From Rhodospirillales bacterium CG15_BIG_FIL_POST_REV_8_21_14_020_66_15 (GTDB lineage Bacteria; Pseudomonadota; Alphaproteobacteria; Rhodospirillales; Casp-alpha2): a DNA stretch of 64,000 nucleotides. The position numbers were made by a program, and so were the translations under genes. Under the pieces are notes generated by a model. The model searched no databases, was not told the origin of the DNA, and saw nothing but the letters and a program-made list of their open reading frames with translations. Numbering within the stretch: the stretch's first letter is position 1; each line of letters starts with the position of its first letter. Positions 1,506 through 32,913 of the stretch are shown one piece after another. Location of the stretch: contig PFFW01000154.1 of assembly GCA_002781745.1 (NCBI GenBank), positions 6,515-70,514 on the forward strand, given 5' to 3'.

Positions 1506-1589
1506 GCCTGAACCGTTGCCCGGCGGCGATACGAATCGAGTGATTCTTGGAATTCATGGAAACTCTCCGGACGGGAAAACCGGCGGCAT

Positions 1590-2027: not shown

Positions 2028-2104
2028 GGATTGCGCCTTTCCGGATGATGCACTAAGACTCTGGCATCCCGCCTGGACATGCCCGGAAAAAGTCGAGACT
2101 CCAA

Positions 2105-3031: not shown

Positions 3032-3064
3032 TCTCCAGTTCACGGGTCCGTCCGCCGTCGATGG

Positions 3065-3958: not shown

Positions 3959-3977
3959 GACGGTTCTCAGATGCGGA

Positions 3978-8974: not shown

Positions 8975-9210
8975 GGTCTGAGTTCGTCCACCAGAAGGGC
9001 GACGGATTGGTAGGACGTGAAGCGGTCGCGCTGCTCGCCGTTCAATTCCGTTCCGAGCTCGGCCTCGATGGCGGCAATGAAGGTTGCCGTGGCCAGGGAA
9101 TCCCATTTCTCGCAATTGATCTGGCGAAGGCTTCCCACATCGGTCTCTTCCGGCAGGTCGAGGACGACAAGAAAGATTTCCTTCAGCTTCGCTTGGGTTT
9201 CAGCGTCCAA
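8971..9210 (-). CDS. Acyl carrier protein
   Basis: Acidic protein of about 79 aa with a WDSL phosphopantetheine motif. TTG 9210 is preceded by AGGAGG (the track start is 9237). Confidence 0.88.
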   Translation of the reverse strand: MDAETQAKLKEIFLVVLDLPEETDVGSLRQINCEKWDSLATATFIAAIEAELGTELNGEQRDRFTSYQSVALLVDELRP

Positions 9211-9249
9211 GATAGCATCCTCCTGCAGTCGAGACACCAGAAGGCACGT

Positions 9250-9834: not shown

Positions 9835-9854
9835 TTGGGCTCCTTGCGTTCGGA

Positions 9855-12781: not shown

Positions 12782-12783
12782 GG

Positions 12784-13776: not shown

Positions 13777-13853
13777 AGTTCACGTCCTTCGGAAGTTGCA
13801 AGCAGGGGATGATCTGGGGCGGGAGGACCGCGACGGCCGCGCGCCACGATCTC

Positions 13854-15143: not shown

Positions 15144-15200
15144 TTCTCGATGCAGGTCAAGGAAAGGCGGGCAGCCGGCGCTCGGCACATCGGGCGCCGC

Positions 15201-16109: not shown

Positions 16110-16132
16110 CTGGTGCGGTCGATCGTTGCGTT

Positions 16133-17059: not shown

Positions 17060-17062
17060 GAA

Positions 17063-18004
17063 TCAGGGGCCTTTGGCGATTGAAGTCTCGTTCAGGCTGT
17101 CCATGGCAAGGACGTGGTCGAGGCGCGGAACCTCCATCGGGTCGGAGGCGTCGTTCAGTCTGCTCTGAAACCCGATGCGGATACCGCGGGCGTCAAGGTA
17201 GGCGAGCAGACGGCCGTCATAATCCCCACAAGGGTAGGCGATGCAATCCGGGGCGTCGCCCGTCGTCTTCTCCAGCCATTCGGCGTTGGTGTCGATTTCC
17301 CATTTCTGTTCGTCGAAGGGCTGGTCCGTGATGCGCGTCGGATGGGTGTGGCTGTGCAATCCGACGATATGACCGTCCTCGTGCAATGCCCGAAGCTGTC
17401 GGCGGTCCATCCAGAGATTGCGCCGCGCCTGCGCCGGGTCGAAGGGATAGGTATCGATCAGCGAATCCATCACTTCGGCAAAGGCCTCGCGCCCAAGAAT
17501 ACGATCACGGATGAATCGGAATTTCCTGTCACCTTCGCTATAGAATGGGTACTCGGACAGGTAATTGCCAGGATTGAAATCGGAGAGTCCTTTCAGGATT
17601 CGCCGGCGCCACCGGGTCCCGTTCCAGAAGCCGTCGAATGCCGCATAGAACGCGTCCACGTCCGGAAAGCAGAGGGTTCGAAAATACCGGTAGATTTCGA
17701 GCCGGTCCGGCGCGCCCGCCAAGGGTCCGGTGTAGGGAAACCAGAACGCAGTCAGGCCGCGTGCCTGCAGGACAGGCAGGGCGACGTCGTATTGGCACAA
17801 CAGTCCGTCGTCGAAGGTCAGGCAGATTTCCCCGCTTGTCAGGTCTCCGCGCAGACGGCGTTCTCGCCACTCCCGTGCGCACAGGATCCGATCCGCATAG
17901 GCATCCAGAAGCGCATCGAACTGATCGGCCGAAATGGCCCCCTGGCCCGCAAGGTGACGCCCGCCATCGCGGAAATGATGGAACATCAGGCCGATCGGGA
18001 TCAT
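17063..18004 (-). CDS. Polysaccharide deacetylase (NodB/CE4-like)
   Basis: LMFHH, CLTFDDG, GLHSHTH, AYPCG. Confidence 0.85.
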   Translation of the reverse strand: MIPIGLMFHHFRDGGRHLAGQGAISADQFDALLDAYADRILCAREWRERRLRGDLTSGEICLTFDDGLLCQYDVALPVLQARGLTAFWFPYTGPLAGAPDRLEIYRYFRTLCFPDVDAFYAAFDGFWNGTRWRRRILKGLSDFNPGNYLSEYPFYSEGDRKFRFIRDRILGREAFAEVMDSLIDTYPFDPAQARRNLWMDRRQLRALHEDGHIVGLHSHTHPTRITDQPFDEQKWEIDTNAEWLEKTTGDAPDCIAYPCGDYDGRLLAYLDARGIRIGFQSRLNDASDPMEVPRLDHVLAMDSLNETSIAKGP

Positions 18005-18021
18005 GGGGGCCCCCGCGTCCG

Positions 18022-18927
18022 TCAGGGGTTCGACTCAGCCACGGCGATCAGCGTGTCGGTCGCGTTCAATTCCGCCAGATAGTCGCCGTATGCGGCCTGA
18101 AACCCGCTTCGTTCGAAATGCGCATATCTCTCGTGCCCGCCGGGCATGCCGTCGAGGAACCAACCGAGATGGTTGGTGAACCCATAACGTTGATGACGCA
18201 TGATCTCGATCTGTCCGTACCCCGCCGCCTCGAGTACCGCCGCCACCGACGCCTCGGTGTGCAGGACAAGGTGTTCGCTCCAGAATGTGAAGTCCCTGAA
18301 CGCCGGGAGGTCGACCGACTGGATCAGGAAATCCCGCGCGTGAGGCACTTCGACGACGATTTTTCCCCGCGGCGCGAGCGTGTCGCGAATTTCGGACAGC
18401 ACCGTCACTTGATGAGGGATATGTTCCAGAACATGGAACAGGGTCACCACATCGAATGCCCGTTCGAAATCACCGATTGCCGGGGCGACGTCCACGCCGG
18501 AATCCGTTAGACGCAGATGGGTCTGACAGTGCCGGCGCAACTCGACGCCGCAGCGTTCCGCGGCATGGCCCCTGTTCAAAGAGAGAAATCCGCCGTATCC
18601 GCATCCGAAATCGCAGATGCGGGCACCCGCCGTCAGGTTCCGGAACATCTCGAAATGGCGCCGATCGTCGGGCAGCGCGGCGGCGCGGACGCTGTCGCCG
18701 TCGGCCAGGGCGGTGATCGTCTGTTCGCCTTCGCGGTCCTGCGCCTTCTCCATCTCGTAATATTCGTCCGAAGTTTCCGCCGCTTGAAGGAAGATGATTC
18801 CCGAGGTCTCGTCCATAAGGACGGGAATGGCCCTGTCCCGGGTCTTCGGATGACAGAGGCGGACCGTGTCCGGGTTCAGCACGCCCAGGCCGACAAGCTC
18901 GTCGAAGACGGGATTGGTGATGTTCAT
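18022..18927 (-). CDS. Class I SAM-dependent methyltransferase
   Basis: CDFGCGYGGFL, DVVTLFHVLEH, EVPHA, SEHLVLH. ATG 18927 overlaps the upstream stop (ATGA). Confidence 0.85.
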   Translation of the reverse strand: MNITNPVFDELVGLGVLNPDTVRLCHPKTRDRAIPVLMDETSGIIFLQAAETSDEYYEMEKAQDREGEQTITALADGDSVRAAALPDDRRHFEMFRNLTAGARICDFGCGYGGFLSLNRGHAAERCGVELRRHCQTHLRLTDSGVDVAPAIGDFERAFDVVTLFHVLEHIPHQVTVLSEIRDTLAPRGKIVVEVPHARDFLIQSVDLPAFRDFTFWSEHLVLHTEASVAAVLEAAGYGQIEIMRHQRYGFTNHLGWFLDGMPGGHERYAHFERSGFQAAYGDYLAELNATDTLIAVAESNP

Positions 18928-20639
18928 TTGGCGACGATGAAATCGCCGAGGACGAGCACGTCCAGACCGCAGGATATGAAGGTGCGCAAGGCATCGGACG
19001 GCGAACACACGACCGGCTCCCCGTTCAGGTTGAACGAGGTGTTCAAGATGACGGGCACTCCCGTGAGCCGTTCGAAATTCTCGATCAGGCGGTAGTAGCG
19101 CGGGTTGGTTTCCCGCGATACGGTCTGCAGCCGGCCCGAGCCGTCCTCGTGGGTCACGGCGGGAATCATCGCGCGTTTTTCCGGGCGGATGGGGAACACC
19201 TTTTCCATGAAGGGAACGGTGACGCCGGGGTCGATCTCGAAGAACTCCGTTGTCCGTTCCTCAAGGATCGACGGCGCGAATGGACGAAAGGCCTCGCGGA
19301 ATTTGACGGCGGCGTTGATCTTGTCCTTCATTTCGGCGCGGCGGGGGTCGGCGATGATCGACCGGTTTCCCAGCGCGCGCTGTCCGAATTCCATCTTTCC
19401 CTGAAACCACCCCACCAGTTTGCCCTGGTCGAGGATCCCGGCGACCTCGGCCGCCACGTCGTCGGAGCGCCGGTAGGACACCTTGTGCTGTTTCAGGGTG
19501 GCTTCGATCTCGTCGTTGGTGAACTCGGGGCCGTAGTAATTGTGCGTCTGAACCTGGCGACCGCTGTTCCCGAATAGCTGGTGATGAACGTAGAGCGCGC
19601 CGCCGATGCTCAGCCCGCTGTCGTCCGGACAGGACGATACGAAGGCGTTGCGGAACGGCGTCTGCCGCGTCACCCGGCCGTTGTAGACAGAATTCATGAA
19701 CATGCCGCCTGAAAGACAAACGTTGTCGAGTCCGGTCTTCCGGTGCAGCCACGAAAGCATGTGGCTCAAGGTTTCTTCCGTGACCCTCTGCATGGCTGAG
19801 GCGATTTCGTAGTGGCGCCCTTCATAGGCGTCGTCGCGGCCCCGCGGCGGCCCGATCAGGTCGACCAGCTTCCGCGAATACATGCCCGGCGTTTCATGGA
19901 CGAAGCCCTTGAAGCAGGTCAGGTCCAGTTCGAAGCGGCCGTCGTCCTTCAGGGTGACCAGATTCTTGATCGACTTGTAATAAGGGTTGTCCCAAGGCGC
20001 GTAGGAACTCAGCGCCATGACCTTCCATTCGTCGCTGTCGGGCTTGAAGCCCAGGAAGTCGGTAAACGTGCTGTAGAAGGAACCCAGGGACTGGGGAATG
20101 GAGATACGCTGCAGGACCTCGATGGAATTTCCCCGCCCGACCGCGAACACCACCGTGTCGTGTTCGCCCCGGCCGTCCGCCGTCAGGATCGCCGCCTCTT
20201 CATAGGGCGACATGAAGAACGCGTTGCCCGCGTGGCAGAGGTGGTGGGTAAGATAATAGGTTTCCAGTTTTTTGCCGCCCGCAAGCGGCACCACCTGGTG
20301 CAGGTATTCCGGCTCCTGGGCTTCGCGGTCGGGCAGGATACGGAACAGGTGATCCTGGACCGAATAGAGATAGTCGCTTCGGAAACGTCGGTTGCCGGAG
20401 AAGATGGGATTATATTTCTGCAGGTGAACCGCCGGATTGTAGCCGTTGACGACACAGTCGATGTCGTCAAGCGCCAGTCCCGCCTGATCAAGACAGTACC
20501 GGATCGCGCGCTCGGGGAACGCGCGGGACTGCTTCTCGCGCGTCAGGCGCTCTTCCGGGCAGGCGGCGACAACGGCGCCGTCAACGACGATGGCCGCCGA
20601 GGTGATGTACATGTCGTGGTTGATGCCCAGAATTTTCAT
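18924..20639 (-). CDS. Carbamoyltransferase (NodU/CmcH family)
   Basis: KILGIN, EERLTREK, HHLCHA, EWKVMAL, MEFGQRALGNRSI, KFREAFRPFAP, LNTSFN. Confidence 0.95.
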   Translation of the reverse strand: MKILGINHDMYITSAAIVVDGAVVAACPEERLTREKQSRAFPERAIRYCLDQAGLALDDIDCVVNGYNPAVHLQKYNPIFSGNRRFRSDYLYSVQDHLFRILPDREAQEPEYLHQVVPLAGGKKLETYYLTHHLCHAGNAFFMSPYEEAAILTADGRGEHDTVVFAVGRGNSIEVLQRISIPQSLGSFYSTFTDFLGFKPDSDEWKVMALSSYAPWDNPYYKSIKNLVTLKDDGRFELDLTCFKGFVHETPGMYSRKLVDLIGPPRGRDDAYEGRHYEIASAMQRVTEETLSHMLSWLHRKTGLDNVCLSGGMFMNSVYNGRVTRQTPFRNAFVSSCPDDSGLSIGGALYVHHQLFGNSGRQVQTHNYYGPEFTNDEIEATLKQHKVSYRRSDDVAAEVAGILDQGKLVGWFQGKMEFGQRALGNRSIIADPRRAEMKDKINAAVKFREAFRPFAPSILEERTTEFFEIDPGVTVPFMEKVFPIRPEKRAMIPAVTHEDGSGRLQTVSRETNPRYYRLIENFERLTGVPVILNTSFNLNGEPVVCSPSDALRTFISCGLDVLVLGDFIVAK

Positions 20640-20675
20640 TGCAGATGACGCCCTATCGCATGGGTTCAATCAAGT

Positions 20676-21593
20676 TTATTTTTCGCAGAGAACAAGCAGG
20701 GAGCCCGTTCCCAACAACAGTTTTGACAGCTCGTGGTCGTAGTTTTCATACATCGGGGCGAGGATCTTTCTGACATTGTCGAAGTGCGGACGCCTGCGAA
20801 GCCGCCGAATGTTCCGGAAGCCGGCGCCCTCCAACATCTGCGTGAACTTGTCTTCGGTGTAAGCCTTGTAAATCGGCGCTTGAAGCCGGTCGAGTACGGT
20901 TAGTTCGAAATCATGGTCGACAAGGCGCTTCAGCGATTCCAGAAGCGATAGGCAGTTTTTTGCCGCTTCGGAACCGTCGTCGTCGATGTTAGCCAGGAGC
21001 CAGTCGAGGGATTCATTAGTCTTCGCAAGCAAATTCATCGAATCGATAAATTGGGCAAAGGCCGGATTGTCACGGTACTCAACGCGCGCCGGTTGCATCA
21101 GGAACTTGGATATGAGGCCGCCCTCTCCGGCAACGAAAATGTGGGCGTGTCCTCCAGGTTTCAGCGTCCGGTAGATTTCTTGAACGGCGCGACGGTCGTC
21201 GTCGACATGATGGATTACGCCCAGGCAGATGACGAAGTCAAAAAAAGCATCCTCATAGGGAGCTTGGCTTAGGGACCCGACGTCGAGCCGCCATCGGCCA
21301 TCGTACGTCGGATTCGTCTTAAGTTCGGCTGTCGCCGGCTCGATGAAGCTTTCGTTAACGTCCATCGCGCAGACATATTCAGCGCCGAGTTCGAGCAAAT
21401 TGACCGTTCCGTTGACGCTGGACCCGCAGCCGAAATCGCCACATCTCTTCCCGACCAGGAAGTCCTCGTCGACGCCGAGGAACGCTGGCGAAATTAACGA
21501 CCGAAGGCGCTTTTTCGTGACGTCGAGGCCCAGGGTTTGACGATGAATTGCGTCAAACACACGTCGAGTTTCTTGCTCCAAATCGTTGGTCAT
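20676..21593 (-). CDS. Class I SAM-dependent methyltransferase
   Basis: GDFGCGS, PYEDAFFDFVICLGVIHH, YRTLKPGG. Confidence 0.85.
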   Translation of the reverse strand: MTNDLEQETRRVFDAIHRQTLGLDVTKKRLRSLISPAFLGVDEDFLVGKRCGDFGCGSSVNGTVNLLELGAEYVCAMDVNESFIEPATAELKTNPTYDGRWRLDVGSLSQAPYEDAFFDFVICLGVIHHVDDDRRAVQEIYRTLKPGGHAHIFVAGEGGLISKFLMQPARVEYRDNPAFAQFIDSMNLLAKTNESLDWLLANIDDDGSEAAKNCLSLLESLKRLVDHDFELTVLDRLQAPIYKAYTEDKFTQMLEGAGFRNIRRLRRRPHFDNVRKILAPMYENYDHELSKLLLGTGSLLVLCEK

Positions 21594-21678
21594 CTTTTGA
21601 GGTCCAAGTTCGGGGAAAGTTGAATAGAGGTCGAGGTGCTAAGTACCGCGCGGGAATCCACGGCGCCGTGACACCAGA

Positions 21679-23580
21679 CTACCGCCCGCGGCGAAGACTC
21701 CCCATTTCCGGCGGGTCGCCGGCAAGGACCTCGAGATCGGTTACGACCTTGCGCAGGGAGCGGCCTTCAAGGTTCAGCCTCCGGCGCAGGGGATTGCCGA
21801 CGAGGAAGGTGAGCGCTTCCCATGCGAGGCGCGCGGTTTTCGTGGCCCCCCGGTAGCGCAGGTTGCGAAGCACGATCAGCGGAACCAGCACCCAGCGGAT
21901 TCGCGCGAACATCTCCGGGTAACAGATGATCGCCATGCCGACCTGCATGTTCCGGATCAGGCTCCAGAACGTCGGATAGGCCTCGTCGTCCCCGACAGTC
22001 AGGGTTTCGCGCCGCTGATGGATCGTGTCCGTCGTGGCGCTGCGGTCGACGAGGCGTTTGGGGTTGGCAAAGTATCCGCTGTCCGATTTGTCCCGTTCGA
22101 AATAGTTGGAACGTTCGAGCACCATCCGGCGGTAGTGCGCGCGGCCGAACTTCTTCTGATAGGCCATGAAGGTTTCAAGCTGGATCATCGGCCGCCATGC
22201 CTGGCACAGCAGGGTCGGATAGGGGGTGAAGTTCAGGGTGTTCGATTCGTCATGGGCGTTGGTGTCGGAAATTCTGAGCAGATAGGCCTCTTCGCCGTCG
22301 ACGCCGGCACCGATTAATCCCTGGTGCCGGGCGAATTCGTAGAGCGGCGTGCCCGGCAGCGCCTGCGCGTAGTTGATGGACAGGTCGGTGGGACATTGTG
22401 ACGGGCTTATGGACAGGCCGAACTTCGCAAAATCGGCGGTTTCGCGAATCGTTTCCGGCGTTTCGCCGGGCATTCCGACCACCAGCTGGATGATCGTGCG
22501 CAGCCCGGCCTCCACCGTCCATCGCATGGCATTGTAGTTGTCCCGGAGCGCGACCTTCTTCTCCATCACCTGAAGCATCTTTTCGCTGCCGGTCTCCATG
22601 CCGTAGATGATGCTGGAGCATCCCGCGTCCTTCATCAGGGCGATGATTTCGGGGTCGACGCAGTTCACGCGCATTCCGCCGACTTTCCACAGGACGTCGA
22701 GCGGCTTGATCTTGGCGCAGAACTCACGCAGCCATTTCCTGCTGGTGCCGAAATTTTCGTCGGCAATATCGACGAAGCCGACGTTGTACCGGTCGATCAC
22801 ATGCTTCAGCCGTTCGATCACGATGTCCACGGGAATGTAGCGGATTCCTTTCGTGAACCGGTGGCAGAAGGTGCATTTCGCCACGCATCCCTTCGCCGCG
22901 GGAATGGTGATCTGCGTCTTGTCGGCCCGTTCCGGCTCGTAGGCCCGCGGGTCGTCGCGAAAGCTGTCGGACGGCATGCCGTCGACCACGCCCGGCAGGA
23001 CGAACACTCCGATGTCGGATGCCCGCTCCAGGTCGGCCCAGTCGAAATCATAGACCTCCTCCGCCGGGAGCTGTTCCTCATAGCCGGTATTGACGAGATA
23101 GCCGTTGCGATCGAAAAGCACGATCCCCGGGATGTCGGAATATGCGGTTGGCTCCGTGGTCTTGTGACTGCGACGGACGATGTTCAGAAAGGTCTTTTCG
23201 CCTTCGCCCGAGACGCAAAGGTCGATGCCCGTCCGCTTCAGCAGAATCTCGGCGCTGGCCGCCAGATTGCCGCCGCACACGACGAGTGTTTCCGGAAGAT
23301 GCTTCTTCACGTCCGAGGAAAGCCGCTTCGTATAGGCATAGGCCGTGGAGACGACGGCGCTTATGCCCAATACCCGGGGCTTCCGCTCGAGAATATGGGC
23401 AAGTACCTCGTCGTAGGACGGCCGGTTGCCGTCGATGTCGAAGAACTCGACGTCGGGTTCACCGTGCATCTTCAGATATCGGATCAGGCTCAGGCTTCCG
23501 ATCGGCGGAAACGGCGTCGGTATCGGCCTGATCGGCGTGGTGACGATCATCGTATTCATGGTGATCCGCGCATCAGCCAT
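21679..23580 (-). CDS. Cobalamin-binding radical SAM protein
   Basis: N-terminal PPIGSLSL...GISAV B12-binding-like domain; AKGCVAKCTFC, IADENF, GMETGSEKML. Confidence 0.88.
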   Translation of the reverse strand: MADARITMNTMIVTTPIRPIPTPFPPIGSLSLIRYLKMHGEPDVEFFDIDGNRPSYDEVLAHILERKPRVLGISAVVSTAYAYTKRLSSDVKKHLPETLVVCGGNLAASAEILLKRTGIDLCVSGEGEKTFLNIVRRSHKTTEPTAYSDIPGIVLFDRNGYLVNTGYEEQLPAEEVYDFDWADLERASDIGVFVLPGVVDGMPSDSFRDDPRAYEPERADKTQITIPAAKGCVAKCTFCHRFTKGIRYIPVDIVIERLKHVIDRYNVGFVDIADENFGTSRKWLREFCAKIKPLDVLWKVGGMRVNCVDPEIIALMKDAGCSSIIYGMETGSEKMLQVMEKKVALRDNYNAMRWTVEAGLRTIIQLVVGMPGETPETIRETADFAKFGLSISPSQCPTDLSINYAQALPGTPLYEFARHQGLIGAGVDGEEAYLLRISDTNAHDESNTLNFTPYPTLLCQAWRPMIQLETFMAYQKKFGRAHYRRMVLERSNYFERDKSDSGYFANPKRLVDRSATTDTIHQRRETLTVGDDEAYPTFWSLIRNMQVGMAIICYPEMFARIRWVLVPLIVLRNLRYRGATKTARLAWEALTFLVGNPLRRRLNLEGRSLRKVVTDLEVLAGDPPEMGSLRRGR

Positions 23581-23601
23581 CGGAGTCCGATCCGAAGTAT
23601 G

Positions 23602-24669
23602 TCACGAATGGGTCTCCTGAGCACGTTTGTTGGCACGGCTTAAATCCTCGAGCCTTCCGACGTCGAGCCAATATTCGTGGATGGGAAAGGCCGCGCAGGT
23701 CCGGCCTTCCTCGATCCATTGGCCGAACAGCGTCGGCATGTCCAGGTGTGTGTTCCTGGGAATCCGTTTCAGGGTCTCCGGCTCCAGCACATAGATCCCG
23801 GCGTTGACCAGGAACCGCTGCGCCGGCTTCTCATCTATGGACACGATTGCGCTGTCGTTCACGTTGACCACGCCGAACGGAACCTGAAGGTCGTATTCAC
23901 GGACAGCCATCGTGGCCAACGCCTCGCGCTCGCGATGGAAGTCGAGCATCTTACTGAAATCGATTTCGGTCATAAGGTCGGCGTTCATCACGACGATGGG
24001 CTCCTTGGGCGCGATATCCAGCAGGCTGAGGGCGCCGGCCGTGCCCAGGGGTTCGCTTTCATCGATGTATCGGATCTCCGCGTTCCACTCCCGGCCGTCC
24101 TTGAATCGGGCCTTGATCTGGTTACCCAGGTAATTGACCGAAACTTGGAACCGAACGAAACCTTGCGCCACGAATTTTTCGATGATGCTTTCCAGCAGCG
24201 GCTTTCCGCCGACCTCGACCAACGGCTTGGGCACGGCCTCGGTCAGCGGGCGAAGGCGCATGCCCTGGCCCCCGGCCATCAGAATGACCCAGTTGTCGCG
24301 GACCGCGCCCGGCTTGATGAGGTCGTCGATGATGACCAGGTCGATCACCCGGCTTCCGGCGTCGACCACGGGCACCTGGTGAATTCCCCGGCGTGCCATT
24401 GTCGCTTTCAGTTCGGCCAACTGGTAGTGCGGCGGGACGGAAAGCGGACTGGCGTTCATGACTTCCGTCACGGGCCGATCCATTGCGACCCCTTTCAGGA
24501 TCGCGCGGCGGATGTCTCCGTCGGTGATGGATCCGAGGAGCCGGTCGTTCTCGTCCACCACGAGAGCGATCTGCAACACGCTGTTGTCGATGCTTCTGAT
24601 CGCCTCAAGCATCGGCATGGTCGGTGGCACAAGCGTCTTTCGCCAATCCGTCACGGTGATACGATCCAA
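23602..24669 (-). CDS. CBS-domain nucleotidyltransferase (PtmE/LegX-type sugar-1-phosphate guanylyltransferase)
   Basis: N-terminal CBS pair (GSITDGDIRRAIL); ILMAGGQGMRLRPLT, PKPLV, EPLGTAGAL, YWLDVG. Lies within the leg gene block. Confidence 0.88.
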   Translation of the reverse strand: MDRITVTDWRKTLVPPTMPMLEAIRSIDNSVLQIALVVDENDRLLGSITDGDIRRAILKGVAMDRPVTEVMNASPLSVPPHYQLAELKATMARRGIHQVPVVDAGSRVIDLVIIDDLIKPGAVRDNWVILMAGGQGMRLRPLTEAVPKPLVEVGGKPLLESIIEKFVAQGFVRFQVSVNYLGNQIKARFKDGREWNAEIRYIDESEPLGTAGALSLLDIAPKEPIVVMNADLMTEIDFSKMLDFHREREALATMAVREYDLQVPFGVVNVNDSAIVSIDEKPAQRFLVNAGIYVLEPETLKRIPRNTHLDMPTLFGQWIEEGRTCAAFPIHEYWLDVGRLEDLSRANKRAQETHS

Positions 24670-24702
24670 ATTTCGTCAGTCGATTGCACGTCGGGCATGG
24701 GT

Positions 24703-26952
24703 CTACGAAATCACCTCGTCGGCGTCGAAATCTCGCGACGCATGCCGGCCAAGCCAATCGAAATAGTCGTATGCCGGAACGCCCGTTTCCGGTCGCTTTA
24801 CGGTCAGGTTGTCGACCGTGAACATTTCGTCCTTGGCGATCGGCCGCGCTGCCACCAGGCTTTTGCGGGCGACCGCCTTGTTGGCGATCTCATTCTCCAG
24901 CGGCCGCTTTACGCCGTCGCCGAGGGCGAGTTCGACGTCGCGGATGGCGGCGACCATGGCGGCGAATGCGCCCGGTTCCATCGACGCCATGTGGTCCGGT
25001 CCGGCCATCGTGCGGTCCAGCGTGATGTGCTTTTCGATAACGCGGGCGCCCCGGGCGACGGCTGCAATCGCGGCGGCCGAACCCTCGCAGTGATCGGAAA
25101 ACCCGACGGGCAGGCCGAAGCGGGCGGCGATCGTGTCCATCGCCCTCAGGTTGACGTCGGCCAAGGGCGCCGGATATTCGGTCGTGCATTGCAGGACCGT
25201 TACCCTGTCCTTGAGCGCGGCGCGCCCCGCCGGACTGAGGAACGCGCGGCGGAACGCATCGCGCCCCGGGGTGCCGCCGGACCTTGAAAACCCGAAGGCG
25301 AGAACACCCAGCGCGGCCTCGATTTCGTCCATGGTCGCCATCCCGGTCGACAGGATTACCTTCAGGCCGCGCTCGGCGATGCCAAGGAGGAGCGGCGCAT
25401 TGGTGAGATCGCCGGACCCGACTTTGATCGTGCGAAGGCCGAGCTCGTCGGCGAGGAAGGCGAGGGATGCGGCGTCGAACGGGGTCGACAGGAAGGCGAC
25501 GCCCCGGTCGCGGCAATGGTCCAGAAGTTCGCGCTGGCCGGCTTCCGTCAGTTCAAGCGTCTTCAACATGTCGCGCTGGTTCTGGGCCGCGCCGGTCTGT
25601 CGCGCCTGATACGCCGCTTTCGGTGCCGCTTCCGTCGTCAATGCATCGGCCTTGAAGGATTGGAACTTGACCGCGTCGGCGCCGGCCGCGGCGGCGGCGT
25701 CGATCAAGGCCTTGGCCGTCTCTACCGAGCCGTTGTGGTTGACGCCGGCCTCGGCGATCACCGTGACGGGTCCGGGTGCCGGCGGCAGGGCGGGAGCGAC
25801 GTCGCGGAACCTCTTGTCGCGCAGCGAGGCGAGGTCCACGGCGCTCAGGATGTCCGCCATTCTGCCTGCGGCATTCCCGTCACCCAGGAAGAAGGGCGTC
25901 TTCCGTCCCCCGTCCGCTTCGCGTCCCATTGCACGCTCCAACGCTTCGGCGACGGCGGCCGGCATCCCGTCGCAGTCGAAGACGGTTGCCGCGCGCAGGC
26001 GCCCCGCCTGGCGCGGCCCCACGTTCACGGTCGGCGTGCCGAGGATCGGCGCCTCGATGACGCCGCTGGAGGAGTTTCCGACGACGGCGTCGGCGATCTT
26101 CATCAAGCTCAGATACCGCAGGCTGCCGAGCGAGGCGTGCAGCGAGGCGCGCGCCGGATTGCGGGCGACGAATTCCCGGATGACCCGGTTCACCGATTCA
26201 TGCCCCGGATCGGCATTGACCCCGGTGAAGACGACGGAGGCTTCGGGAAACCGCTCCAGCGCCGCCGTCACGGCCTGGACTCCGGCAAGGCCGTCGTCGC
26301 CGGCAAGGGTCACCGGATGGTAGGTCGCGAGGAACAGGGGCGGTTCCAGTCTCCGTCCAAGGTCGGCTTCGAGTTCGGCCCGGTCCAGGAAGTCGAGGGT
26401 CCGCAGGTTGTCCGCGGCGAGGGCGCCCACTGCATATGTGTTGTCCGGATCCTCCCCCATCTGGACGACCCGCTGCCGATAGGGCTCGGCCGCGGTGAAA
26501 TGCAGGTGCGCCAGTTTGGTCACGGCGTGCCGGATTGCGTCGTCGAAGGCGCCGGCGGTCAGTTCACCGCCGTGGATATGGGCGATCGGAATTCCGCTCA
26601 ACATCGCGGCGGATGCCGCCGCCAGAGTTTCGTAACGGTCGCCGAGCAGCACCAGGACATCCGGTTTCAGATCCGAAAACGCAGCGGTGAGCCTGGCCAG
26701 CGCCGCCGCCATGATGTCGGCCGCGGCCTGCGCGTCGTCACCGGGGCGAAGGATGTCGACCCGGGCGGCGATTTCGAATCCATCGGCCTCGATGACGTCG
26801 ACGGTCCGCCCGAAGGCCTCGGACAGGTGAGTGCCCGTCACGACCAGGCAGAGGGACAGATCCTTGCGCGCGTCGATCGCGCGGAGCAGCGGCACCAGCA
26901 GGCCGTACTCCGCCCGCGTCGCCGTGATCACGCAAATCCGCCGAGGCGCCAA
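24703..26952 (-). CDS. neuC-neuB: Fusion of hydrolysing UDP/GDP-sugar 2-epimerase (NeuC/LegG) and nonulosonate synthase (NeuB/LegI) with SAF domain
   Basis: N-half TATRAEYG, VLLGDRYE, AHIHGGE, GNSSSG; Pro/Ala linker; C-half IAEAGVNHNG, KFQSF, STPFD, STGMA, GFSDH, IEKHITLD. Single uninterrupted frame. Confidence 0.92.
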   Translation of the reverse strand: MAPRRICVITATRAEYGLLVPLLRAIDARKDLSLCLVVTGTHLSEAFGRTVDVIEADGFEIAARVDILRPGDDAQAAADIMAAALARLTAAFSDLKPDVLVLLGDRYETLAAASAAMLSGIPIAHIHGGELTAGAFDDAIRHAVTKLAHLHFTAAEPYRQRVVQMGEDPDNTYAVGALAADNLRTLDFLDRAELEADLGRRLEPPLFLATYHPVTLAGDDGLAGVQAVTAALERFPEASVVFTGVNADPGHESVNRVIREFVARNPARASLHASLGSLRYLSLMKIADAVVGNSSSGVIEAPILGTPTVNVGPRQAGRLRAATVFDCDGMPAAVAEALERAMGREADGGRKTPFFLGDGNAAGRMADILSAVDLASLRDKRFRDVAPALPPAPGPVTVIAEAGVNHNGSVETAKALIDAAAAAGADAVKFQSFKADALTTEAAPKAAYQARQTGAAQNQRDMLKTLELTEAGQRELLDHCRDRGVAFLSTPFDAASLAFLADELGLRTIKVGSGDLTNAPLLLGIAERGLKVILSTGMATMDEIEAALGVLAFGFSRSGGTPGRDAFRRAFLSPAGRAALKDRVTVLQCTTEYPAPLADVNLRAMDTIAARFGLPVGFSDHCEGSAAAIAAVARGARVIEKHITLDRTMAGPDHMASMEPGAFAAMVAAIRDVELALGDGVKRPLENEIANKAVARKSLVAARPIAKDEMFTVDNLTVKRPETGVPAYDYFDWLGRHASRDFDADEVIS

Positions 26953-26955
26953 GTT

Positions 26956-28170
26956 TCAGGCTTCCGTTCCGCGCAGCAGCCGGGGGCCGCTTGGGATGTT
27001 GACGAGCCGGTCGACGAACGACCGCGCCGTTGCCAGGTCGCCGGACCGGGGCGCGTCCGCATAGGCGGCCGTGTCGGGGATCAGGCGCCAGCAGGGTCGG
27101 GTCTGGATGTCGGCGTCGTTGGTCCGGGCAAGGAAGCTGTCGCGGGCCGGCGCATCGTCGAACATCAGCGCATTGAGCCAGAAATTGCTTTCGCTGCCGA
27201 CGGGCTCCGCAAAGACCGTCACGCCGTCGACGTCGCGGAACAACTCCGCGTACCGTGCCGCGAGTTCCCGCTTGCGGGCGATAAAGCGGGGCAGCAGTTC
27301 CAATTGGGCACAGCCCAGGGCGGCGTTGATGTTGGGCATGCGGTAGTTGTAGCCGACCGCGTCATGGTCGAACCACCACCGGTCCGGCAGGCGTGCCGTC
27401 GTCGTCAGGTGTTTCAGGCGCGTCGCCAGTGTTTCGTCGTCCGTCACGATCATGCCGCCGCCGCCCGTGGTCACCGTCTTGTTGCCGTTGAAGCTGACGA
27501 CGCCCACCGTGCCCAGGCCGCCGCACGCACGGCCATGGTGCCGGCTGCCCAGGGCTTCGGCCGCGTCCTCGATCACGGGCAGGCCGAATTCGGTCGCCAC
27601 GGCACAGAGTGCGACCATATCGGCGGGATGGCCGAACAGGTGAACCGGGAGGATCGCCGCGATCCGCCTGCCGCTTGCCTTGTGGACAAGGCCGTCCGAC
27701 GCCATGTCGCAGCCGTCCTCGAGCAGGGTCGATAGCGTCGCCGCATCGATCCCACCCGTCGCGGCGTCGATATCGACGAACAACGGCGCCGCCCCGCAAT
27801 AACTGATCGCATTGGCCGTGGCGATGAAGGTCAGGGCCGGACATACCACCGCGTCCCCGGATCGAACGCCGACGGCAAGCAATGCCGCGTGAAGGCCGGC
27901 GGTCCCGTTAACGACGGCGACGCCGTGCGCGGCGCCGCAGGCGTCGGCCGTCAGGCGCTCGATGCGCTCTACGTACGTCCCCGCGGAGGACACCCAACCG
28001 GTGTCCAGGCAATCCTTCACATAGGTCCATTCGTTGCCTTCGAACGACGGTTCATGGAGCGCGACCGGGCCCTCCATGCCCAGGTCGCCACGCAGGAAGT
28101 CCGCCAGGCGGGTGGCCGCTGTTGTCGCGGCGTCGGCGGCGGGCGATGCGGCGGCGAGGAGGTCAGACAT
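26956..28170 (-). CDS. legC: LegC-family aminotransferase
   Basis: VALHEPSF...CLDTGWVSSAG, EDAAEALGS, SFNGNKTVTTGGGG, GYNYRMPNINAALG, TRPCW. Confidence 0.9.
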   Translation of the reverse strand: MSDLLAAASPAADAATTAATRLADFLRGDLGMEGPVALHEPSFEGNEWTYVKDCLDTGWVSSAGTYVERIERLTADACGAAHGVAVVNGTAGLHAALLAVGVRSGDAVVCPALTFIATANAISYCGAAPLFVDIDAATGGIDAATLSTLLEDGCDMASDGLVHKASGRRIAAILPVHLFGHPADMVALCAVATEFGLPVIEDAAEALGSRHHGRACGGLGTVGVVSFNGNKTVTTGGGGMIVTDDETLATRLKHLTTTARLPDRWWFDHDAVGYNYRMPNINAALGCAQLELLPRFIARKRELAARYAELFRDVDGVTVFAEPVGSESNFWLNALMFDDAPARDSFLARTNDADIQTRPCWRLIPDTAAYADAPRSGDLATARSFVDRLVNIPSGPRLLRGTEA

Positions 28171-29173
28171 TGTAGCGGTCGGCCTTGTAGCGCGTCAGGT
28201 GGCCGGACGCGCGGAACCACTCGACGGTTTCGGCGATGCCGCGCTTGAATCCTGCAAGCCCGCCGTACTCGGGCTCCCATCCCAGGATATCTCGCGCCTT
28301 GGTGTTGTCGGCCCACAAGCGCTCGACTTCGCTTTGCTCGGGGCGCAGGCGCTGGTCATCGGTCTCGATGTCGAGCGACGTGCCGGTCACCTCGGCGATC
28401 GCCTTGACCGCGTCGCCAATGGAGATTTCGAAGTTGCTGCCGATGTTGACGACCTCGCCCACGCCGGAACCGCTCTCGGCCATCTTCACGAAGGCGCGGA
28501 CCGTGTCCGCGACGAAGCTGAAATCGCGCGTCGGATGCACGGCGCCGAGCCGCAGGCGCGTCTGTCCCGAAAGCGCCTGGGTGATGATCGTCGGCAGGAC
28601 GGCGCGCGCCGATTGCCGCGGGCCGTAGGTGTTGAAGGGGCGAATCACCGCGACCGGCGCTTCGAACGACCGGTGGAAGGCGAGCGCCATCTGGTCGGCG
28701 GCGATCTTGGTCGCCGAATAGGGGGACTGTCCCTGCAGCGGATGGTCCTCGGTGATGGGGACAGAGCGGGCGGTGCCGTAGACTTCGCTGGTCGACGTGT
28801 GAACGACGTGGGTCGACCCCTGGTCGACCGCCGCCTGCAGCACGTTCAGCGTTCCCTGGATGTTGGTTTCGACGTAGGTGGCGGGGGAATGGTAGGAATA
28901 GGGAATCGCGATCAGCGCGGCGAGGTGCAGGACGACGTCGCGACCGCGCATCGCCTCGCGCACGCCGTGGGCGTCGCGGATGTCGCCTGCGAACACGTCG
29001 ACCGAGCCCCGCACATCGTCGTCGGCGTGATCAAGCCAGCCCCACGAGTTGAACGAATTGTAGTAAACGAAGGCGCGCACATCGTGTCCGCGCCGCATCA
29101 GGGCTTCGGTCAGGTGCGAGCCGATGAAGCCGTCGGCGCCGGTCACCAGGATTCGTTTGGATGGAACGGTCAT
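28163..29173 (-). CDS. legB: LegB-type NDP-GlcNAc 4,6-dehydratase
   Basis: VTGADGFIGSHL, YYNSFNSWGWLD, HLAALIAIPYSY, QGQSPYSATK, RPFNTYGPRQSARA. Confidence 0.9.
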   Translation of the reverse strand: MTVPSKRILVTGADGFIGSHLTEALMRRGHDVRAFVYYNSFNSWGWLDHADDDVRGSVDVFAGDIRDAHGVREAMRGRDVVLHLAALIAIPYSYHSPATYVETNIQGTLNVLQAAVDQGSTHVVHTSTSEVYGTARSVPITEDHPLQGQSPYSATKIAADQMALAFHRSFEAPVAVIRPFNTYGPRQSARAVLPTIITQALSGQTRLRLGAVHPTRDFSFVADTVRAFVKMAESGSGVGEVVNIGSNFEISIGDAVKAIAEVTGTSLDIETDDQRLRPEQSEVERLWADNTKARDILGWEPEYGGLAGFKRGIAETVEWFRASGHLTRYKADRYNV

Positions 29174-29886
29174 GATCGGGCGGGCGCCTCGGCCGAGCGG
29201 CGGGTCTTTTCGAAGATTGCGCGGGCCATCATCAAGTCCAGTTCGCTGTCGATGTCGACGGATCGCTCCATCGGCATGACGCAGGCGATGGTGTCGTTAC
29301 CGTAGAAGGTTCGGCGTTCGCGAAACCAGTCCGTCCGCGCGACATAGACGGCGCCGTTGGGAAGGTAGGCGGGCGGGATGTCCTGGCGCCGGGTGTGCAG
29401 CCCGTCACCCGGGATGACCGGCGTCAGCCGGCCGTCCGGCCGCAGGCGGCAGATCCATTCCGGCGGCTTTGGCGTCTCGCAGACCGTGACCGCGCTGCTT
29501 GCGTCGGGCCGGCAGGCCTCGATGCAGGCGTCGATGTCGGCGCCGCTGCGCAGCGGCGAGGTCGCGGCCAGCAGCACGACGTAGTCGAAATCTCCGTCCA
29601 GGGAATCCATCGCGTGGATCACGGCATCGGCGACCGGGGCCTCGTCCGTGGCCAGGTTCGAGGGGCGGCGGAACGGCGCCTCGCATCCGGCGGTTCGCGC
29701 GGCGTCGATGATGGCGTCGTCGTCCGACGACAGGATGACCCGGTCGAGATGGCGCGACGCCTGCGCCGCCGCAACGCTCCAGGCGACAAGCGGCCTTCCG
29801 CCCAGGTCGGCGATGTTCTTTCCCGGCAGGCCCCTGGAGCCGCCGCGGGCGACGATCACGCCCAGGCAAGTCTTTCCGTCTATCAT
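29170..29886 (-). CDS. Acylneuraminate cytidylyltransferase (NeuA/LegF family)
   Basis: IVARGGSRGLPGKNI, SSDDD, TSPLR, NGAVY, SVDIDSELD. ATG 29886. Confidence 0.92.
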   Translation of the reverse strand: MIDGKTCLGVIVARGGSRGLPGKNIADLGGRPLVAWSVAAAQASRHLDRVILSSDDDAIIDAARTAGCEAPFRRPSNLATDEAPVADAVIHAMDSLDGDFDYVVLLAATSPLRSGADIDACIEACRPDASSAVTVCETPKPPEWICRLRPDGRLTPVIPGDGLHTRRQDIPPAYLPNGAVYVARTDWFRERRTFYGNDTIACVMPMERSVDIDSELDLMMARAIFEKTRRSAEAPARS

Positions 29887-29934: not shown

Positions 29935-29946
29935 CACGCTACCGCA
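29935..29946 (-). promoter_or_regulatory. ops-like element (RfaH loading / pause site)
   Basis: Minus (non-template) strand reads TGCGGTAGCGTG, 11/12 identical to the enterobacterial ops GGCGGTAGCGTG. It lies between the rfaH-like gene and the first biosynthetic gene. Confidence 0.75.
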
Positions 29947-29975
29947 CTCCGGGTGACGGCGATTCGCCCGGAGTG
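29945..29975 (-). promoter_or_regulatory. Leader hairpin immediately 5' of ops (JUMPstart-like architecture)
   Basis: CACTCCGGG (29945-29953) is the exact reverse complement of CCCGGAGTG (29967-29975). The stem extends by two further inner pairs after one mismatch on the minus-strand transcript. Confidence 0.6.
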
Positions 29976-30026
29976 GCCGGATGCCAAGATGCGGCCAACG
30001 GCCGCAATTGCCGCCGGCCGTCTACC

Positions 30027-30518
30027 TCAGGCAGCGGTGACGGCGTGACCAGGCAGGCGTGTGCGGACGACACGCCCCATGAACTCAAGAAGCAGGACGA
30101 CACGCTGTTCGTCGTCGACGCATTCGAACAAGCCCTCCAGCTCGGCGAACGGGCCGTCGGTGATGCACAGCTTCTGTCCCTTGACGAATTCCGGCGGCGC
30201 GATCTGGACGATGCCTTCACGTTCGCGCCCGTGGATGGCGTCGACGACATCGTTGGGAATGGCGATGGGATCCGGGCCTTCGCTCAGGAGATAACTCACC
30301 CCGATCGTACCGTTTATCGACCGCCATCTTTGCGTTTCCGGATCCAGGCGAACGAAGAGATACCTGGGGAATAGCGGCGTCATCACCGTGTATATCCTGC
30401 GGGCGTGGCGGCACTGCTTCTGGTATCGCGGCAGATAGGCGTCGAAGCCCTGCTTCGCCAAATTTCGAAGGGCCACCTGCTCCTTGTGAGGCTGGGTATA
30501 GACAACGTACCAGTTCAT
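30027..30518 (-). CDS. rfaH: RfaH-like NusG paralog (transcription antiterminator)
   Basis: WYVVYT, NLAKQG, PLFPRYLFVRLDPE, SINGTIGVS, KOW-like ITDGPFAELEGLF. ATG overlaps the marR stop. Confidence 0.85.
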   Translation of the reverse strand: MNWYVVYTQPHKEQVALRNLAKQGFDAYLPRYQKQCRHARRIYTVMTPLFPRYLFVRLDPETQRWRSINGTIGVSYLLSEGPDPIAIPNDVVDAIHGREREGIVQIAPPEFVKGQKLCITDGPFAELEGLFECVDDEQRVVLLLEFMGRVVRTRLPGHAVTAA

Positions 30519-31189: not shown

Positions 31190-31228
31190 TGTTCAAGATG
31201 TGAACATACTTCGTTCATATCTTGAACG
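31190..31228. promoter_or_regulatory. Tandem palindromic operator, two GTTCA-N5-TGAAC boxes
   Basis: TGTTCAAGATGTGAACA (31190-31206) and CGTTCATATCTTGAACG (31212-31228). The two 15-bp cores are also inverted repeats of each other (14/15). The site starts 9 bp upstream of the marR start. Confidence 0.7.
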
Positions 31229-31290
31229 TCAAGTTCCCGGTCCGGTCGCCGGAACGGGCGTCAATCGGAAAATGCTGTTGATTCCATGCC

Positions 31291-32913
31291 TTAAGATGCC
31301 GCGGGCGGTTTGGCGCCATGGTACGCTTGGCGGAACACATTGCCGCTCCGGTGCAATACCAGCGCGCGAAGCGCGTTGACGCCTCGGAAGTAGCGGTTCA
31401 GCCCGCCGTTCCACATAAGGGCGCGCATATTGCTCGCCCAGACGCGGGGAGAACTATAGTACTCCATGAACGCGCGTTTGTACCAATACTGCATCCGCTC
31501 CTTGCCGATCAGGGGATTTACGTAGATCGGGTCGTCGAAGTCGATGGAGAGAAACTCACTCCAGTCCTTGTGTTGGCGAATTCCCCCGTCCTTCTTGCAG
31601 GCGGCATATAGATCCGTCGCCGGATACGGTACCGGGAGGTAGAACAAACTCATCTGTGCCGCCAGTTTCTTGGCGTATTTGATGGTGTTGTGGACCATCT
31701 CCTCGGTCTCCCCCGGCAGGCACAGGATGAACGAGTTGGTCATCGTGATCTTTGCCTTGTGGGTCCAGTCGACGGCCTCCGCCTGGCGTTCGGCGGTGAT
31801 TCCTTTCTTGATCACCTGAAGCGACGATTCATTGGCGGATTCAATGCCGTATAGAATGTTTCGACATCCGGCTTCGTGCATCAGGGCGAGAAGGTCCGGA
31901 TCAACCCGGTCGGTTCGCGTGGTGCACGACCAAAGCAGGTCGTTGAGACCCTCCTTGATCATCATCTCGAAAACCTGGGTAATGTACTTGCGATTGATGG
32001 TGAAGGTCGAATCTTGAAAATAGATGCCTTTGGCGCCTTTCTCATACTTCAGGAGCTTCAGTTCCTCGATCACCCGGTTCGGGCTTAGCAGCCGCAATTT
32101 TTTGCCGAGCGCCACGTGGGCTTCGCAAAAGCTGCAGGGATAGGGGCAGCCGCGTTGCATCACGACCGGATAATTGGGCAGGCGGATGTATTGGGTCGGA
32201 TGGGGGATGTAGCGAGACAGGTCCAGATCGCCGAACATGCCCAATGGCAGATCGTCCAGATCGGGTAACAAGGTGCGATCCGGGTTCACCACGACCGTTC
32301 CGGCGTCGGCGCGCCACGTCAGGCCCTCGATGTTCTCGAAGGTCGTTTCTCCAGCGCTCAACGCTTCGATCAATTCGATGATCGTGACTTCGCCTTCACG
32401 GCGAATACAGAAATCGCATTCGGGCGATTCCTCGAGCGTCAACGTGGCATTTGCCGTCGCATGAACGCCGCCATAGACAATAATCGCGTTGGGAAGGACG
32501 TCGCGAACCAAGCGCGCCGTGTTGAAGACATGCGTTGCAGTCGGCGTGAACAGTGGGAGGCCGACGAAATCGTAGCGCTTTTCGCCCAGCACCCCCCTTA
32601 GATCAGCCTCGGTTATGTCGCCGAACTGAGTGTCGATGAAGTCGACATCGTACCCTTTGTGACGAAGCCAGCGGTAGATCGATATCGTGCCCAACGGCGG
32701 AAGATAACCCTGCTCGACCTTGACGCTGCCCCATGCCGCCTCCGGGGGATAGAAGGGTTCAAGAAGAAGGATATTCGGCGATGTCTTCGGAAACGCCCGG
32801 TAGCGCGACACCCTGGCGTCGTGGGCTGCCGTGTCGGACTGCCCGTCGTGGAGTTTCTCGAAGGTCGGAATTTTGATAGGACAGGTCGTTGTCTCGCTGG
32901 AAGGAACGTACAT
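31291..32913 (-). CDS. Cobalamin-binding radical SAM protein
   Basis: PPLGTISI, VYGGVHAT, RREGEVT, QRGCPYPCSFC, FQDSTF, YGIESAN. Confidence 0.9.
   Translation of the reverse strand: MYVPSSETTTCPIKIPTFEKLHDGQSDTAAHDARVSRYRAFPKTSPNILLLEPFYPPEAAWGSVKVEQGYLPPLGTISIYRWLRHKGYDVDFIDTQFGDITEADLRGVLGEKRYDFVGLPLFTPTATHVFNTARLVRDVLPNAIIVYGGVHATANATLTLEESPECDFCIRREGEVTIIELIEALSAGETTFENIEGLTWRADAGTVVVNPDRTLLPDLDDLPLGMFGDLDLSRYIPHPTQYIRLPNYPVVMQRGCPYPCSFCEAHVALGKKLRLLSPNRVIEELKLLKYEKGAKGIYFQDSTFTINRKYITQVFEMMIKEGLNDLLWSCTTRTDRVDPDLLALMHEAGCRNILYGIESANESSLQVIKKGITAERQAEAVDWTHKAKITMTNSFILCLPGETEEMVHNTIKYAKKLAAQMSLFYLPVPYPATDLYAACKKDGGIRQHKDWSEFLSIDFDDPIYVNPLIGKERMQYWYKRAFMEYYSSPRVWASNMRALMWNGGLNRYFRGVNALRALVLHRSGNVFRQAYHGAKPPAAS

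Follow-up and report, generated by a model that had tools for sequence, protein, structure and literature searches.

RfaH is the model for elongation factors that board a transcribing RNA polymerase at a specific sequence, and the loading modes understood so far are those of Escherichia coli RfaH and, recently, of UpxY from Bacteroides. Alphaproteobacteria contribute about a fifth of RfaH homologs (18% of all sequences; Wang et al. 2020, PMC7593976). Here we describe a stretch of 64,000 nucleotides (nt) from Rhodospirillales bacterium CG15_BIG_FIL_POST_REV_8_21_14_020_66_15 (contig PFFW01000154.1, positions 6,515 to 70,514; hereafter the window), in which the gene of an RfaH-like NusG paralog is followed by a hairpin that runs into the ops-like element TGCGGTAGCGTG, ahead of a long array of glycan genes. 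The hairpin (31 nt) and TGCGGTAGCGTG together quite probably constitute a composite pause-and-load site of about 40 nt for the paralog encoded just upstream.

In E. coli, the ops element (GGCGGTAGnnTG) is located on the non-template strand ahead of long surface-glycan operons, within a 5' leader called JUMPstart, where a stem-loop stands shortly ahead of ops. The rfaH gene itself is unlinked and monocistronic. Once recruited at ops, RfaH relieves operon polarity and counteracts Rho. The protein is autoinhibited, with an alpha-helical KOW hairpin packed on the NGN domain and a salt bridge between E48 and R138 as part of this state. The E. coli ops sites all share the non-template hairpin word GCGGTAGC (PMC11685472, PMC5995543), the central CGGTAG is dispensable for pausing and serves factor recognition (PMC5995543), and ops is described as a backtrack-type pause without a pause hairpin (PMC11685472). 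The site of UpxY, opsX, spans about 40 bp in the 5' leader ahead of upxY and combines a NusA-enhanced pause hairpin with a non-template DNA hairpin, YGCGNAGCR; in addition, the UpxY NGN domain reads upstream duplex DNA there (Saba et al. 2024, PMC11685472). LoaP of Bacillus velezensis is likewise a cis-linked NusG paralog and needs a small RNA hairpin in its target leader; it differs in antagonising NusA at intrinsic terminators and in using no ops-type DNA word (PMC12691694). Alphaproteobacterial RfaH homologs adjoin envelope-biogenesis genes, those of cluster CL4 beside a helix-turn-helix regulator (PMC7593976). For cis-encoded homologs, a beta KOW domain has been predicted and some ops-contact residues are missing ('monomorphic beta-RfaH', 2026 preprint PMC13015549; PMC7593976), and the gammaproteobacterial monomorphic homologs are ops-independent in E. 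coli (PMC13015549). In the literature covered, which included few subscription journals, we found no recruitment site for alphaproteobacterial RfaH homologs, and no report of a hairpin-ops element, of a fixed gene-then-site layout or of RfaH in Rhodospirillales.

All genes of the locus lie on the minus strand, in the order MarR-like winged helix-turn-helix (wHTH) regulator, RfaH-like gene, intergenic gap, PseF-like gene and further glycan genes. A preliminary description, drawn from the letters and open reading frames (ORFs) of the window, had reported that the first two genes overlap and that a hairpin in a gap of roughly 140 nt runs directly into an ops-like 12-mer, 48 nt before the next start codon. 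Remeasurement bore this out: the two ORFs share 4 nt, the RfaH-like stop codon and the PseF-like ATG (29886) are 140 nt apart, and TGCGGTAGCGTG, which agrees with GGCGGTAGCGTG at 11 of 12 positions, lies about 90 nt past the stop codon, its G12 being 48 nt ahead of the ATG. The co-oriented genes that follow, put at about 27 kb in the same description, extend for about 30 kb from 29886 to the window start and continue past it. The hairpin has 9 perfect pairs between CACTCCGGG (29975..29967) and CCCGGAGTG (29953..29945) around a 13-nt loop, and the last two bases of CCCGGAGTG are the first two of TGCGGTAGCGTG. In the minimum free energy (MFE) fold, the 5' arm is ACTCCGGGCGA (29974..29964), the loop occupies 29963..29957, and the 3' arm is TCACCCGGAGT (29956..29946).

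Numbered as in E. coli, the element reads G2 C3 G4 G5 T6 A7 G8 C9 n10 T11 G12, and GCGGTAGC within it is the E. coli non-template hairpin word. Read against the E. coli data (PMC5995543), the sequence predicts a pause at U11 (29936) with G12 at 29935, and GCGGTAGCGTG fully matches the elemental pause consensus, with G at -10, T at -1 (Y in the consensus) and G at +1. With the RNA 3' end at U11, the hairpin would have its last pair at -11, immediately upstream of the RNA-DNA hybrid, as in pauses of the his type, which are stabilised by a nascent hairpin that also blocks backtracking.

Conservation of the 12-mer at this position in homologous loci was one of the points on which the preliminary description had made its proposal depend. 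In a sample of 201 genomes of the same order, 99 carry an ortholog of the RfaH-like protein (E<1e-20), and 93 of the loci have a usable downstream flank. The motif GCGGTAGCnTG is found 3' of the rfaH-like stop codon in 73 of these 93 loci, which come from about 30 families and encode proteins of 38-76% identity. The distance from the stop codon to U11 in the 73 loci has a median of 70 nt (interquartile 65-80, range 53-202), and in the closest relatives, Rhodospirillales metagenome-assembled genomes at 65-76% identity, the element is located about 80 nt 3' of the gene in four of four cases. GCGGTAGC.TG, including T11 and G12, is invariant in all 70 distinct aligned copies; C9 does not vary in the family, position 1 is T or G, and TCACCCG-A just 5' of the ops word is at least 90% conserved in the same copies. 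Moreover, the motif in the 73 loci is always preceded by a covarying hairpin with the 3' arm TTCACCCGGA.

The distribution of the element was surveyed with a 22-nt pattern, TCACC-N6-GCGGTAGCNTG, with the reversed pattern as control. The pattern gave 107 matches in 90 of the 201 genomes and its control none. It is present in 88 of the 99 genomes with an rfaH-like gene versus two of the 102 without one, and both matches in the latter are degenerate (TCACCTTCTGCG.. and TCACCGGCAGCG..). Seventy-five matches lie within 400 nt downstream of an rfaH-like gene. Another 30 are remote from it, 14 on other contigs and 16 elsewhere on the same contig, and 13 of these 16 are found 3-68 kb downstream on the same strand. 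At the level of the class, the pattern occurs in 34 of 397 further genomes from about 30 families (three control matches), and an rfaH-like gene ends about 70 nt upstream in 5 of the 12 loci inspected. The cis-encoded paralog with an ops site just 3' of its own gene, as proposed in the preliminary description, is thus supported both by the conserved position and by the co-occurrence with the gene.

GCGGTAGNNTG is found 12 times in the 3.85-Mb genome from which the window derives, including three copies on this contig's minus strand; the longer TCACCCGGnGTGCGGTAGCGTG has just two copies, both on the minus strand and within the same cluster. The second full hairpin-ops copy, TCACCCGGCGTGCGGTAGCGTG (contig C111:3404-3425, minus strand), lies 33 kb downstream and 3.1 kb outside the window, where 260 nt of intergenic DNA precede HAD/GmhB-like and transaldolase-like genes; it is likely a reloading site for the next transcription unit. 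This second copy, together with the remote and unlinked copies in gene-bearing genomes, indicates that the RfaH-like factor probably also acts in trans. In one relative of the order, two elements lie on opposite strands 250 nt apart (G082:C40:58057-58327), 48 kb from the rfaH-like gene; the arrangement looks like a divergent promoter region with one loading site on each side.

Base pairing was examined with per-sequence RNAfold and register-anchored counts on 84 distinct 40-mers upstream of GCGG. MAFFT alignments of the element gapped the 5' arm, and RNAalifold on one of them showed only the two-pair GC/CG mini-hairpin inside ops. On average, 8.6 of 11 positions of the 3' arm pair with upstream bases, versus 5.1 when the 5' part is shuffled, and at least 8 positions are paired in 70% of the elements versus 18% of the shuffles. 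The pairs covary: C-G (29), G-C (22) and A-T (2) are seen at -2; T-A (52), G-C (4), A-T (2) and C-G (2) at -3; and C-G, T-A, T-G and G-C each occur at -4 and -5. Examples of paired arms are CTTCGGG/CCCGAAG, GTGTAGGTG/CACCTGCAC, GTTTGGGTAT/ATATCCAAAC and AGTCGGGGTG/CACCCCGACT. With the register set by Watson-Crick pairs only, G.U exceeds A.C by 40 to 21 (p ~0.02, uncorrected for relatedness), and the loop varies from 3 to 13 nt. Because of the G.U excess and the variable loops, the inverted repeat fits an RNA hairpin on the sense strand rather than a protein-bound DNA palindrome. The 3' arm is conserved beyond the need for pairing: all 84 elements have A at -9, paired in only 57 of them, a hint that TTCACCC is read as sequence too. 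A scan of the window against Rfam gave no family at gathering score; the JUMPstart covariance model RF01707 reached 15.1 bits against a gathering score of 35 (E=2), aligning on the ops part only.

The RfaH-like protein matches the Pfam NusG NGN domain at 71 bits. Among the NCBIfam models, RfaH TIGR01955 ranks first with 131.7 bits, under its cut-off of 144.5, followed by RfaH NF006534 (93.5 against 124), UpxY NF033644 (79.2 against 100), LoaP NF033641 (56.1 against 125) and NusG (51). E. coli RfaH is also the best sequence match in the PDB (E=2.4e-18; NusG 1e-6), and database annotation of these proteins already reads RfaH or NusG-family. Judged by its scores and its contact residues, both of which fall short, the protein is not a member of the curated RfaH equivalog. 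The genome encodes no NGN proteins other than this paralog and a housekeeping NusG; Rho is also encoded.

Alignment to E. coli RfaH reproduced the substitutions K10Q, R16V, H20N and R73I given in the preliminary description, and added R23K; Q24 is kept. Among the 93 orthologs, position 10 is H, Q, R or K, H (52%) and N (45%) share position 20, and R (73%) or N occupies position 23. Position 73 has a hydrophobic residue (V, I, F, L or Y) in every ortholog and never R. Residues Q24, T72 and G74 are invariant, and F56, Y54, F130 and R138 are kept across the clade, all of these being shared with E. coli RfaH. Position T66 is an invariant W, and the loop corresponding to the Rho-binding loop of NusG reads L/M-G. 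The preliminary description had suggested that such substitutions would imply a different mode of recognition. The altered contacts are borne out across the clade, R73 being absent throughout, but H or N is retained at position 20, R prevails at position 23 and Q24 never changes; as judged from these residues, recognition of ops is modified rather than wholly different.

Residue E48, the partner of R138 in the E. coli salt bridge, is never E in these proteins: it is T in the protein of the window and A, R, S, V or T in the clade. AlphaFold2, run with a 62-sequence alignment, gave a model with an all-beta KOW domain and a predicted local distance difference test score (pLDDT) of 89.5. In Foldseek, the whole model aligns to activated RfaH (8phk, 6c6s) and to NusGs, and autoinhibited RfaH (5ond, 2oug, 8pfg) aligns over the NGN domain only. 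The RfaH-like protein is therefore predicted not to be autoinhibited.

Compared with E. coli, the locus shares an NGN and KOW paralog of NusG that scores best on RfaH models, an ops-type element on the non-template strand ahead of a long array of surface-glycan genes, and the hairpin word GCGGTAGC followed by nTG, with G2, T11 and G12 fitting the pause consensus. In contrast to E. coli, the factor gene is in cis, directly 5' of the site and paired with a wHTH gene; the element is placed in the intergenic spacer after the factor gene instead of a 5' leader; and ops directly follows a long conserved hairpin whose last pair falls on ops position 1. C9 does not vary and T or G stands at position 1 here, and R73, E48 and K10 of the E. 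coli protein are not conserved. With UpxY and opsX, the locus has in common a cis-encoded NusG paralog heading glycan or capsule genes and a multipartite site of about 40 nt, which comprises an RNA hairpin (here a candidate pause hairpin), a non-template DNA hairpin (YGCGNAGCR there, GCGGTAGC here) and conserved DNA just 5' of the bubble, here the 3' arm. It differs from them in that the site is 3' of the factor gene, that there is one factor per genome with a wHTH partner and no UpxZ-like inhibitor, and that the DNA hairpin carries the E. coli loop. In its sequence, the element thus joins the E. coli DNA hairpin to a Bacteroides-type architecture, and the factor very probably works like RfaH with UpxY features. 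In contrast to the gammaproteobacterial monomorphic homologs, which acted without ops in E. coli (PMC13015549), a protein of this type is here accompanied by a strictly conserved ops-type element.

The regulator has an N-terminal winged helix (Pfam HTH_24, 33.8 bits, cut-off 21.9) and matches NCBIfam MarR_EPS TIGR04176 at 65.4 bits, under the cut-off of 88; a homolog lies directly 5' of the rfaH-like gene in 89 of 92 loci. A promoter, TTGACG-18-TATGTT, is predicted in front of it; its -35 element, like the TA of its -10 element, does not vary among the five closest loci, and TTGACGTTCA recurs in at least 40 loci of the order. Two GTTCA-N5-TGAAC palindromes overlap the -35 and -10 elements and are followed by AGAGG and the ATG of the regulator. 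The closest relatives keep the whole arrangement, which is seen again elsewhere in the order: 71 of 89 loci have one or more such palindromes within 260 nt 5' of the MarR-like start. With only three copies in the whole genome, the palindrome is present here as a pair that probably serves as an autoregulated operator bound by the wHTH regulator. In order, the cassette consists of promoter and operators, regulator, factor, hairpin-ops and glycan genes. No conserved promoter motif is seen across loci in the spacer that separates the hairpin from the factor gene, and therefore read-through from the cassette promoter would be the simplest source of transcripts over the element. The earlier proposal that the factor is transcribed first and loads just downstream fits both the promoter with its dual operator and the lack of a conserved promoter in the spacer. 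The C-terminal half of the regulator (residues ~110-221) resembles a small domain of the Rossmann or CoA-binding type (VVVVGATELA...), faintly matches the N-terminal part of NeuD/PglB, and may be a ligand-sensing domain tied to sugar-nucleotide metabolism.

The structure of the locus, its conservation, the covarying pairs, the co-occurrence of element and gene, the residues of the protein and its predicted fold lead us to infer a course of events that involves pausing, factor binding, a role of the hairpin, a preference for action in cis and antitermination. Transcription would start at the conserved promoter and pass through the regulator and then the rfaH-like gene. RNA polymerase would pause at the hairpin-ops, about 70-90 nt past the stop codon of the factor, where the nascent hairpin would stabilise the pause and prevent backtracking. 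The non-template strand would form the GCGGTAGC mini-hairpin, the same as that read by E. coli RfaH, to which the NGN domain of the paralog would bind, possibly together with the conserved TTCACCC duplex just upstream. The paralog would then displace NusG, leaving a polymerase that is processive and Rho-resistant over at least 30 kb of glycan genes, and polymerases that start at the next unit would be reloaded at the second site, 33 kb downstream. Because the factor gene is directly upstream and its stop codon 70-90 nt before the site, the terminating ribosome would be positioned just behind the hairpin and the fresh protein would be freed near the paused polymerase. We are less certain of this preference for cis action than of the loading site itself.

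Other explanations of the element were considered. It might be an RNA-level signal that is independent of the RfaH-like protein and merely travels with the cassette, such as a NusA-dependent pause or attenuator, a 5' stem-loop by which the downstream mRNA is processed or stabilised, or a pause for the timing of translation initiation. The invariance of CGGTAG in 70 of 70 copies is difficult to reconcile with such a signal, since E. coli ops can pause without these bases, whose role there is in recognition by the factor (PMC5995543). In its favour, the flanking G2, T11 and G12 are the bases that pausing requires. The covarying hairpin and the favouring of G.U on the sense strand would suit an RNA-level signal, as would a protein without R73 and K10; and the co-occurrence is partly trivial, most copies being physically linked to the gene. 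However, the 30 remote copies are confined to gene-bearing genomes, against two degenerate matches in the 102 genomes without the gene, and no T-run follows the hairpin, which rules out an intrinsic terminator. We regard an RNA-level signal as improbable.

Alternatively, the inverted repeat might be a double-stranded DNA operator for a dimer of the adjacent wHTH protein, in view of the palindromes bound by MarR-type dimers and of the linkage of the regulator to the element in 89 of 92 loci. The spacer of 3-13 nt and the bulges are unlike the fixed spacing of a dimer site, the predominance of G.U over A.C indicates a strand-specific structure, and the repeat adjoins an asymmetric invariant 11-mer; meanwhile, the two GTTCA-N5-TGAAC copies at the promoter offer a natural operator instead. 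This makes an operator function of the repeat very improbable. Finally, a chance 11/12 match in GC-rich DNA is refuted: the single GGCGGTAGCGTG match at no more than one mismatch in the window is not significant alone, because 0.56 are expected per 64 kb, and its significance comes from its position and from the position-specific conservation in 73 of 93 loci, with 107 pattern matches versus none for the reversed control.

Several observations weigh against a composite loading site read by the upstream-encoded paralog. Three of the four E. coli ops-contacting side chains differ in the protein of the window (K10Q, H20N, R73I), as does R16V, and position 73 is hydrophobic in 93 of 93 orthologs; with these changes, binding of the protein to GCGGTAGC is not guaranteed. 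Twenty of the 93 loci have no element directly behind the gene, and none was found directly behind the plasmid-borne homologs of Agrobacterium sp. MA01, Sphingobium sp. TKS and Bradyrhizobium sp. ISRA435. Since the element physically adjoins the gene, most of the co-occurrence is trivial and information comes only from the 30 remote copies; moreover, related genomes do not count as independent. An internal promoter may also exist inside the 3' end of rfaH. The role of a pause hairpin is deduced from its spacing, and is less certain than the loading-site assignment.

On the plasmids mentioned above, related sequences occur elsewhere. On the Bradyrhizobium sp. ISRA435 plasmid CP094621.1 (29997-30018), a hairpin is followed by AGTGCGGTAGCGTC, in which C replaces G12; this trans-located variant is 395 nt ahead of a glycosyltransferase gene and 51 kb from the plasmid's own RfaH-like gene. 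On the Agrobacterium sp. MA01 plasmid NZ_CP045856.1 (locus ~5213), GCGGTAGCTTG stands without a TCACCC hairpin, in an intergenic position 2.2 kb 3' of the annotated rfaH and on the same strand.

If the hairpin-ops is a loading site, a concrete and mutable site of about 40 nt, consisting of an invariant 11-mer and a covarying hairpin, would be available for a large clade. The gene-then-signal cassette heads long sugar-synthesis operons across Alphaproteobacteria. Annotators could use the site to recognise where long surface-glycan operons begin and which genes belong to the regulon of the factor, and it might be transferred as a module when long gene clusters are to be expressed in alphaproteobacterial hosts. 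Moreover, proteins without the recognition arginine and without the autoinhibition switch would then be seen to rely on the E. coli DNA word, which bears on the order of RfaH evolution. According to the published order, R73 arose late, and the ops contacts as a whole arose late together with autoinhibition (PMC7593976). A predicted non-autoinhibited protein beside a conserved ops word fits the late origin of R73 and disagrees with the joint late origin. A broader reading, which we put forward tentatively and hold somewhat less likely than its opposite, is that GCGGTAGC is an ancient recruitment word, read in Alphaproteobacteria by a non-autoinhibited beta-KOW RfaH lineage without R73, K10 and E48; specificity would come from the composite site (NusA-type pause hairpin, upstream duplex and ops) and from release of the protein near the paused polymerase, not from fold-switching. 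Were this so, ops recognition would predate autoinhibition, reversing the published order, and the designs of E. coli ops and Bacteroides opsX would be linked.

Table 1. Features of the locus in window coordinates
Feature	Position	Strand	Basis
wHTH (MarR/HTH_24-like) regulator gene, 221 aa	30515..31180	-	Pfam, NCBIfam
RfaH-like specialized NusG paralog, 163 aa	30027..30518	-	Pfam NusG NGN, TIGR01955 best match
Conserved hairpin, candidate nascent-RNA pause hairpin	29945..29975	-	MFE fold, covariation
Ops-like element TGCGGTAGCGTG	29935..29946	-	Motif match, conservation
PseF-like CMP-sugar cytidylyltransferase, first downstream gene	29170..29886	-	NCBIfam PseF, Pfam CTP_transf_3
Co-oriented glycan / nonulosonic-acid gene array	3..29173	-	ORF list, Pfam
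Sigma-70-like promoter TTGACG-18-TATGTT	31203..31232	-	Consensus scan, conservation
Two GTTCA-N5-TGAAC palindromes, putative operators	31191..31227 (31227..31213, 31205..31191)	-	Alignment
Second ops-like word GGCGGTAGTCTG, doubtful	21675..21686	-	Motif match

The second ops-like word in the window, GGCGGTAGTCTG, is an exact match to the E. coli consensus. Its TAG is the stop codon of a B12-radical-SAM ORF, whose product has paralog-level matches (27-31% identity) in five relatives and no ortholog there. The site is treated as doubtful because the family-invariant C9 and the hairpin are missing, and it may be a chance occurrence. Directly 3' of the rfaH-like stop codon, the MFE fold shows a GC-rich stem-loop, GGCCGGCGGCAATTGCGGCCGTTGGCCGC, at 29986..30019 (minus strand); neither a T-run after the stem nor visible conservation in relatives was seen.

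The product of the first gene downstream of the element scores 140.6 bits on the NCBIfam PseF model, under its cut-off. Its start codon was chosen by alignment to the family, and no obvious Shine-Dalgarno sequence is found in the 15 nt before it, which read ggcttaccatcacg. Many E. coli RfaH targets likewise lack an evident Shine-Dalgarno sequence. The co-oriented array, of at least 30 kb, belongs to a nonulosonic-acid or glycan pathway and encodes dehydratases, aminotransferases, a NeuC-NeuB fusion, a CBS-nucleotidyltransferase, B12-radical-SAM enzymes, methyltransferases, a carbamoyltransferase, a deacetylase, an ABC exporter and a GT2 glycosyltransferase. Two B12-binding radical-SAM enzymes (31291..32913 and 21679..23580, minus strand) and a SPASM-domain protein (16133..17059) are encoded in or next to the cluster, which suggests unusual C-methylation or similar chemistry on the sugar.

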